This document shows positions 2,790 through 3,692 of a stretch of DNA of 64,000 bases, in pieces (within the stretch, counting starts at the first letter, position 1; each line of letters begins with the position of its first letter). The notes under the pieces were generated by a model. That model did not search any database. It saw only the letters and a list, made by a program, of their open reading frames with translations, and was not told the origin of the DNA. The translations under genes and the position numbers were made by a program. The DNA lies in contig CANQOC010000005.1 of the NCBI GenBank assembly GCA_947625375.1, forward strand, positions 45,630 through 109,629, written 5' to 3'. This stretch comes from an uncultured Clostridia bacterium (GTDB lineage: Bacteria > Bacillota > Clostridia > Oscillospirales > Ruminococcaceae).

Positions 2790-3692
2790 ATATAGAGGAT
2801 AGAGGGTGGAGGGGTAGAAGATAGAAGATAGAAGTCAGAGGACAGAAGTCAGAAGCATATGAAGACACTGCGGCAAAGACACCGCCGATGACTTATAAAG
2901 GTATTAGCTGCACGGGTATGTTGTGAATAGCACCCACACCCGCACTTAAAAGGAATTCGCTGGCGCTCATACTATCTTTAGTCACCCTACCCCGACCCTC
3001 CCCTCAAGGGGAGGGGGCGTGAAGGAAGCTTGCGAGCGCTATAGGAAAATATACCGGCGTCCAACCTTTTATAAGGTATTCGCTTCGCGAATGCTATCTT
3101 TAGTCACCCTTCCCCGGCCCTCCCCTCGAGGGGAGGGAGTTGGAAGGAAACTTGCGAGCGCCATGGGAAATTATACCGGCGTCCAACCTTGTTATAAGGA
3201 ATTCGCTTCGCGAATGCTGTCTTAGTCACCCCACCCCGACTCTCCCCTCTAGGGGAGGGAGTTGGAAGGAAACTTGCGAGCGTTTATAAAATATGGTTGC
3301 GACGCTACACCTCTTAAAATGTATTCGCTTCGCTCATGCTATCTATAGACTCCTACCCCCCTGTCCCCCTTTCCACATGGAAAGGGGGTGTTTGGCAAAC
3401 CGAAGCCACGTCTGTTCAGAGCCACATGCCATAGGAGCATACGCTTGTTTTATCTGTGAACGCGAGCAATCAATCGTTCACGATTGCGAAGCGTGAACAG
3501 CTATAAAACAAGCTTATGCACGCAGTCCGGCGCGCTCCGCGCGCGAACAAAAGGAGCAGGAAAACTCCGGAAGGAGTTTTCCTGCTCTTTCGTTCCGACC
3601 GCCTTTCGGCGGTCGCGGACTGCGCCATATCAGAGAGCAGAAATCATATTTCTATCCTCTATCCTCTATCCTCTATCATCTAATCTCTACCC
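2790..3692. repeat. Mosaic intergenic block of hairpin modules, bracketed by inverted purine/pyrimidine tracts
   Basis: Purine tract 2792-2856, hairpins ccctcccctcNaggggaggg x3, module aaggNattcgcttcgc..atgct x4, nested hairpin 3521-3623, pyrimidine tract 3641-3692. The modules recur at 15.5-16.4, 20.8-21.8 and 54.9 kb. Confidence 0.9.
2949..3346. repeat. Tandem repeat, unit about 122-124 bp, about 3.2 copies
   Basis: The unit starts (aagg[at]attcgc...) recur at 2949, 3073, 3196 and 3318. gtcaccc recurs at 2981, 3103 and 3225. Confidence 0.9.

Follow-up and report, generated by a model that had tools for sequence, protein, structure and literature searches.

To our knowledge, the intergenic repeats described in bacteria so far (REP, BIME, BOX, ERIC and MITEs) are single hairpins or long stems. 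BOX elements are modular, adopt a stable secondary structure and lie between genes, and their mobilising enzyme is unknown; their fold is one long stem made from boxA and boxC, with tandem boxB units. In Streptococcus pneumoniae, BOX (boxA-boxB-boxC) is present in about 120 copies in a Firmicute genome of about 2 Mb (Martin 1992; Croucher 2011). REP and BIME sequences occur in Enterobacteria and Pseudomonas, with REPINs mobilised by RAYT transposases; the REPs themselves are single imperfect hairpins of 20-40 nt with a conserved 5' tetranucleotide, often arranged as inverted doublets, and the cognate RAYT gene is REP-flanked (PMC2817692). Correia/NEMIS and other bacterial MITEs carry target-site duplications (TA for Correia) and have related full-length insertion sequences, and some of their copies give neighbouring genes terminators or processing sites (review PMC2229807). 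On a smaller scale, C-GNA-G is the motif of unusually stable DNA mini-hairpins, for which the literature is physico-chemical (PMC13037366); no description of a genomic repeat family built from GNA-triloop tips was found in the literature that we searched.

The repeat described here is non-coding, palindromic, intergenic and structured, about 108 bases long and apparently undescribed: a full-text literature search for its outer-stem sequences and for four-way-junction repeats returned no published description. In the way it works it is comparable to REP/BIME and BOX, but it stands outside those families, and its architecture is new. With REP/BIME it shares a high copy number, GC-richness, an intergenic palindromic build, a mosaic arrangement with other motifs, the use of both orientations, a location mostly at operon ends and a species-specific sequence. 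Unlike in REP, the unit is a closed four-way junction of 75-110 nt, and the Y1 transposase genes found here are neither flanked by copies nor distributed with them. With BOX it shares a Firmicute host, a genome of about 2 Mb, some 120 copies and a modular, structured build between genes, whereas the four-way junction, the hypervariable but perfectly paired arms and the lack of sequence similarity set it apart. The intergenic position and the terminal inverted repeats (an outer stem of 11-12 bp) recall MITEs; however, no target-site duplication was found for the element and, among the genes flanked by two copies and in plasmid and phage collections, no related insertion sequence. Its long arm (hp2) resembles bidirectional intrinsic terminators in that the A-tract, stem-loop and T-tract read the same on both strands in this genome, but this arm is embedded in a larger junction, its T-tract is interrupted and not followed by unpaired sequence, and relatives are without it. 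Finally, like d(GCGAAGC) and other GNA-triloop mini-hairpins (PMC13037366), the hairpins have C-GNA-G tips on one strand, e.g., GCGCGC-GAA-GCGCGC.

Predicted fold of the three window copies

The window is the whole 64,000-nt stretch of DNA that was analysed, from an uncultured Clostridia bacterium. Covariance-model matches place three copies in it, at 3518-3627 (core 3521-3624), 21389-21498 and 54892-54998, and their alignment spans about 108 nt. A sequence-only reading of the window had noticed a module at these three sites, and the module is real. The RNA minimum free energies of copies 1, 2 and 3 are -78.6, -95.4 and -84.1 kcal/mol, with z-scores of -11.6, -13.5 and -8.8, and none of 200 shuffles folded as well. 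Folding is just as good for the reverse complements, and with DNA parameters the same junction is obtained on both strands at -51 to -65 kcal/mol.

The module had been described as a nested hairpin followed by a short one. These hairpins are there, but the first hairpin of the element, hp1 (GCGCGC-NNN-GCGCGC), was overlooked, so the structure is a closed four-way junction instead. In the three copies, an outer stem of 9-12 bp surrounds three abutting hairpins, leaving 0-2 unpaired junction bases. The outer inverted repeat as a whole is 11-12 bp, GGGCG[C/A]AG(T)CC(C)G, and the hairpins that it encloses are perfect: hp1, the long arm hp2 of about 22-24 bp around GGAAAACTCC-N4-GGAGTTTTCC, and the 8-bp GC-rich hp3, which is the short 3' hairpin correctly seen in each copy. 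Either single strand, of DNA or RNA, is predicted to form this closed junction.

Copy 1 lies between the convergent rplL and CDP-alcohol phosphatidyltransferase genes, 66 nt from the stop codon of the latter. In its fold, CGCAGTCCG (3521-3529) pairs with CGGACTGCG (3616-3624) as the outer stem, and between them follow hp1, GCGCGC-TCC-GCGCGC (3530-3544), hp2, GAACAAAAGGAGCAGGAAAACTCC-GGAA-GGAGTTTTCCTGCTCTTTCGTTC (3545-3595), which is terminator-like on the minus strand, and hp3, CGACCGCC-TTTC-GGCGGTCG (3596-3615). Copy 2, the top match of the family model with 123 bits, is located inside a 1015-nt repeat block with a phosphoribosyltransferase gene on one side and a GNAT gene on the other. Its outer stem pairs 21389-21400 with 21487-21498, and hp1, hp2 and hp3 occupy 21401-21415, 21416-21467 and 21468-21486, respectively.

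Copy 3 belongs to a minor subfamily with GAGGGTATAAAAG arms. It has an outer stem of 54892-54902 paired with 54987-54998, hp1 at 54903-54917, hp2 at 54918-54966 and hp3 at 54967-54986. For this copy a replacement of T:A by C:G in the outer stem had been claimed, which is inexact: the 5' T is absent and the 3' A has become G, leaving one bulged G in the fold. The two alternative pairs of hp2 arms, aaggagcag/ctgctcctt and gggtataaaag/ctttttataccc, are as originally described. The element begins about 40 nt downstream of the stop of ORF 54595-54852, a locus at which only a 61-aa gene is called in other strains, and lies about 80 nt upstream of the greA promoter (TTGACA-17-TATAAT, 55081-55109).

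Searches of Rfam at gathering and E-value thresholds assigned no family to the element; the sole matches in the window were two tRNAs, and a scan of the element region gave sub-threshold chance matches only. No copy was called as a tRNA by ARAGORN or by Rfam RF00005.

Pairing is kept across a genome-wide family

Three copies, as counted in the sequence-only reading, is the right number for the window but not for the genome (2.04 Mb, 36 contigs, 54% G+C), which holds about 120. The BLAST census gave 127 clusters, 61 on the plus and 66 on the minus strand, with 119 of full length, and a covariance model built from 117 copies recovers the copies found by BLAST. Elements of this genome are 103-112 nt long and have four helices, and all 119 full-length copies differ, no two being identical. 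A structure-only scan of all the intergenic DNA of this genome detected no second four-way-junction family.

Folding of the further genomic copies could have spoken against the proposed pairing. The three-hairpin fold was obtained for 118 of the 119 copies, and in the family alignment 92.8% of the cells of the 50 junction pairs are standard pairs, compared with 85.8% in column shuffles (0 of 500 reached the observed value); when partners were slid by 1-3 columns, pairing fell to 36-49%. The proposal that stems differ between copies yet stay paired thus holds for the family. Double-sided changes were found in 31 of the 50 pairs (430 cells). Helix 2 (hp1) is 98.3% and helix 4 (hp3) 97.9% paired. 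Among the outer-stem pairs (columns 1-12 with 108-119), the T:A pair is found in 34 copies, while 77 lack it on both sides. The subfamilies recombine freely: the two types of hp2, the two lengths of outer stem and at least five types of hp3 are combined in many ways.

Mispairs and most loops are strand-symmetric

In order to see which molecule is constrained, we compared the two strands of the element. Mispairs are strand-symmetric (156 G:T versus 165 A:C, p = 0.66), and the mean fold energies of the two strands, taken over the 119 copies, are -75.9 and -76.8. The loops of hp1 occur as reverse-complement pairs (TTC in 51 and GAA in 33 copies; TTT in 12 and AAA in 2; TCC in 7 and GGA in 2), as do those of hp2 (CTCC in 10, GGAG in 8). 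The loops of hp3 are strongly one-sided, with 60 TTC and 3 GAA. While stable RNA hairpins typically end in UNCG or GNRA tetraloops, the tips found here are triloops closed by C:G that read GNA or, on the opposite strand, TNC. The same was observed in congeners, where 100 of 111 triloops in 45 folded elements were C-GNA-G (60) or C-TNC-G (40).

Symmetric mispairs, reverse-complement loops and GNA/TNC triloops all argue against a strand-specific RNA. With the kept pairing and the compensated changes between orthologous copies (see below), the mispairs and loops point to maintenance at the DNA level, by copy exchange and arm-to-arm template switching, and not to a strand-specific RNA gene. The compensatory changes that had been reported between the window copies are present, but they look like the products of such DNA-level exchange and arm-to-arm copying and do not constitute evidence for a strand-specific RNA. 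On the other hand, the one-sidedness of hp3 still leaves room for a strand preference or for simple inheritance. The orientation of copies shows a mild bias relative to incoming transcription (22:11, p = 0.08), a weak relation to GC skew that we do not trust (45:74, p = 0.01) and no relation to the majority gene direction (59:60). Given the hp3 loops and the biases with transcription and GC skew, some strand-specific constraint is possible.

Copies lie in repeat blocks at transcription-unit borders

All but one of the 119 copies are intergenic. The spacers that bear them have a median length of 1279 nt, compared with a typical intergenic length of 24-231 nt. By our custom ORF caller, on which these context counts and the terminator-depletion statistic given below are based, 55 copies lie between tandem genes, 32 between convergent and 22 between divergent ones; 33 are within 150 nt of a gene 3' end and only 5 within 150 nt of a gene start. 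The flanks are heterogeneous and consist mostly of other repeated modules in either orientation, and the boundary is sharp at the outer stem. Copies are thus found, in both orientations, in long mosaic repeat blocks at the borders of transcription units. The gene neighbours named in the sequence-only reading (L7/L12 for copy 1, the phosphoribosyltransferase and GNAT genes for copy 2 and GreA for copy 3) were correct. Its statement that the copies have no common context is right as far as no neighbouring gene is shared; what they have in common is long repeat-filled intergenic blocks, mostly near gene 3' ends.

Several further observations concern these blocks. At 2739-3692 of the window, rplJ-rplL is followed by a 954-nt repeat block and the convergent CDP-alcohol phosphatidyltransferase gene, not by rpoB, and this block holds other dispersed modules, e.g., TTATAAAAGGTATTCGCTKCGCTCATGC and CCCTCCCC-N4-GGGGAGGG hairpins. 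Degenerate purine-rich heptamer arrays (GAGGATA/TAGAGGA-like) start directly after stop codons (window 3637-3692, 54813-54860 and 21700-21797; L086 43-125), and inverted pairs of such arrays bracket the junction-containing repeat blocks; a purine-rich or pyrimidine-rich tract likewise borders the junction on one side in congeners. Tandem arrays were found as well, with three units of about 245 nt in this genome (G000 C21:11560-12840) and four units of about 305 nt in the congener G027 (L064 2260-3220), each unit containing one junction and G-rich spacer modules. The coding density of the 2-Mb genome is only about 80% by ORF-based calling. Many contigs of the species, including greA-locus assemblies, end inside or beside an element (L026-L030, L167-L170), so the repeat fragments short-read assemblies.

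The long arm of this genome's family resembles a terminator

The hp2 of this genome is much longer than that of relatives. It is designed as an A-tract, a stem of 10-16 bp, a loop, the returning stem and a T-tract (AAACGAAA...TTTCGTTT), the tracts being ATAAAA...TTTTAT in the minor subfamily, and a long arm with this A-tract/stem/T-tract order occurs in this genome's family only. A simple terminator rule (hairpin plus T-tail) recognised 84 of the 119 copies on the plus and 91 on the minus strand, i.e., 70-76% per strand and in both subfamilies, whereas it recognised 6 of 357 shuffles (1.7%) and 1 of 51 and 0 of 51 elements of relatives. The terminator-like T-tail ends at the 3' base of hp2, and no T-tract follows the whole element in the three window copies. 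Since the T-tracts of hp2 are interrupted (TTTCGTTT) and pair with the A-tract in intact copies, their efficiency as terminators is uncertain.

We also asked how often gene ends that have a copy possess a separate terminator-like site. Such sites were found at 7 of 33 gene 3' ends that have a copy no more than 150 nt away and at 225 of 567 other operon ends (p = 0.042), which is a modest depletion measured with the simple terminator rule. From the sequence of hp2 we infer that copies may serve at operon borders as intrinsic terminators, or as structures at transcript ends, whatever their orientation. Since hp2 is terminator-like and separate terminators are depleted, the expanded family may double as a terminator or transcript-end structure, and this role may explain how the lineage reached about 120 copies.

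A more far-reaching interpretation would make the repeat primarily an RNA-level element, i.e., a bidirectional intrinsic terminator and/or an exoribonuclease-blocking 3'-UTR structure, with selection acting on the transcript and the repeat nature being secondary. The excess of copies near gene 3' ends over gene starts, the terminator-like hp2 on both strands, the depletion of other terminators at copy-bearing gene ends and the extremely stable RNA fold are all in its favour, as is the 'empty' allele of one strain at the GNAT locus, which has a canonical terminator in place of the block (see below). However, congeners possess elements of the same architecture without the T-tract, so termination cannot account for the class as a whole, nor for its outer stem, hp1 and hp3. 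Moreover, G:U is not favoured over A:C, 22 copies reside in divergent promoter regions, and the tips are GNA/TNC triloops and not the UNCG/GNRA tetraloops expected for RNA stability. We therefore regard a primarily RNA-level element as possible, though rather unlikely.

Comparison of strains at orthologous loci

Contigs of other strains were retrieved through exact-protein look-ups. At the rplL locus, the element is present at the same site in every strain that keeps the pgsA-like neighbour, and the flanks within about 160 nt are, by eye, nearly identical across strains. The hp2 arms differ coordinately at several positions (A:T, G:C, with an A:C intermediate), and the hp2 loop is GGAA, CTTC, CTCC or GGAG, of which CTCC and GGAG are reverse complements of each other. 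Through gain or loss of other modules, the intergenic length varies between 549, 954 and 1249 nt. At the greA locus, the upstream copy is conserved across strains and its hp2 differs slightly.

The spacer between the GNAT and phosphoribosyltransferase genes exists in alleles of 141 nt (some strains), 510 nt (one strain) and 1015 nt (the window). The 141-nt allele consists of a purine-rich heptamer array and a canonical intrinsic terminator, with no block, while the 510-nt allele contains a repeat block with the element. This ortholog (L085) differs from copy 2 by two compensated changes (G:C to A:T and C:G to A:T) and a new loop. Because the replacing arm variants are present among the other genomic copies, the simplest reading is exchange between copies, inverted ones included, which would flip the loops, together with arm-to-arm template switching. 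The latter process gives multi-base compensatory changes and inverted loops (PMC8794818).

The spacer downstream of the GNAT gene (window 20783-21797) shows length alleles in the comparison with L085, L086, L090, L091 and L094. In some strains the gene that adjoins it downstream is another one, with a consensus promoter and an apparent T-box leader (GGGTGGTACAGCGAG) in front of it. The alleles of this spacer and the altered downstream gene make the repeat blocks seem to be rearrangement breakpoints.

Distribution among relatives

When the model of this genome's own family was run against 36 congeners and 24 other families of the order, it found nothing comparable beyond three weak matches, which have the same architecture and unrelated arms. 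Regions of G027 and G007 contain many closed junctions of 77-88 nt with the outer stem GGGCGAAGCCC...GGGCTTCGCCC, often arrayed with a period of about 300 nt. A pattern covering both outer-stem alleles matched in 25 of the 41 species of the genus, with 196, 80, 68, 42 (this genome, strict pattern) and 28 matches in the five richest genomes, compared with 0-2 matches for the backwards-pattern controls. The architecture and the outer stem GGGCG[C/A]AGCC recur patchily in the genus; the arms are unrelated between species. The rabbit-gut MAG G013 carries both outer-stem alleles and a hybrid, which links the two alleles by a C:G to A:T change.

With a model built from the copies of relatives, the class was found in 3 of 70 sampled genera of the family, the genus of this organism included; all three share the outer stem GGGCGCAGCCC, and one of the other two has at least 38 matches. 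A GAAG-type outer stem was found in 0 of 401 genomes of the order (27 of the same family, and of this genus only G000), the orthologous pgsA-like locus carried the element in 0 of 29 congeners, and plasmid and phage collections contained no similar DNA.

Farther away, a multi-copy long-hairpin repeat (10 matches) was noted in an unrelated marine Acidobacteria MAG, of Candidatus Marinacidobacterales (L095 6910-6990; L103 6440-6520). Its centre, GCGCAGCCGGCGCGCGAAGCGCGCGAAAC, almost matches the 5' third of the element, with which it has a 28-nt 5' motif in common. We judge this to be probably a by-product of the search pattern and not homology, although the shared GCGCGC-GAA-GCGCGC mini-hairpin is curious.

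Proposed explanation and mode of spread

Taken as a whole, we consider the best explanation, and on balance a probable one by a small measure, to be a palindromic DNA repeat whose pairing is kept up at the DNA level, which spreads block by block and which in this genome has acquired a putative terminator arm. Pairing would be both kept and diversified by gene conversion among the many copies, inverted ones included; template switching within the palindrome would add compensated changes, and selection would act for foldability. We infer gene conversion and template switching from the patterns of change described above. Copies would spread with the repeat blocks of which they are modules, as these are duplicated, amplified in tandem, inserted or deleted, and not by classical cut-and-paste transposition. 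Across the four loci compared between strains, we saw no clean presence/absence polymorphism of a single copy but only block-level gain and loss, so our view of the mode of spread is an indirect one.

The outer stem could alternatively be a terminal inverted repeat that a transposase acting in trans recognises. This would agree with an inverted repeat of 11-12 bp that is conserved across genera around a variable interior, with the sharp boundaries against heterogeneous flanks, with the patchy distribution (0 to about 200 copies per genome) and with the orthologous site without copies in 29 congeners. Nevertheless, no target-site duplication was found in 20 copies of G023 and G013, whose copies are near-identical, nor in the copies of this genome, and the genes flanked by two copies are housekeeping genes with no transposase among them. 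The lack of solitary insertion or excision polymorphism in the four strain comparisons also counts against it, and the 119 copies, all of them different, give no hint of a recent burst. Nor is the IS200/IS605 Y1 transposase distributed like the elements. A link to RAYT/Y1 transposases was rejected on these grounds: the sole intact PF01797 gene of this genome (C12:75412-75768) has no copy nearby, and G005, G007 and G015 carry 10-17 copies each without a Y1 gene. We find a transposase acting in trans improbable as the main explanation.

Still, the conservation of the outer stem across genera suggests a protein partner, and together with the patchy distribution it makes a trans-acting partner possible. 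In a more speculative version, to which we give little credence, the closed junction would be the unit read by a structure-specific DNA machinery through the outer stem and the three GNA-tipped hairpins. This machinery would copy, move or exploit the junctions; candidates would be a nucleoid protein that binds junctions, a factor for priming or replication restart, or a transposase or recombinase acting on single strands. The element would then be mobile or structural DNA of a new kind.

It is highly improbable that the copies are small RNA genes or ribozyme-like RNAs that share a four-way-junction fold. The fold is stable and shows covariation, but some 120 copies occur in both orientations with no link to promoters, pairing runs through the whole of each helix and leaves no conserved loop inside it and no conserved unpaired base at the junction, the mispairs are strand-symmetric and neither Rfam nor ARAGORN recognises the copies.

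Significance of the repeat family

The element represents a new architecture, in which the closed four-way junction is the invariant, the arms vary freely yet are always paired, and the tips are GNA triloops. Elements of this kind fill a large part of the roughly 20% of non-coding DNA in a 2-Mb gut genome and vary between strains. Their hundreds of paralogous hairpins are also a natural data set in which compensation through gene conversion and template switching can be set against selection on RNA. If the long arm does terminate transcription in both directions, the repeat would have been recruited as a portable operon insulator.
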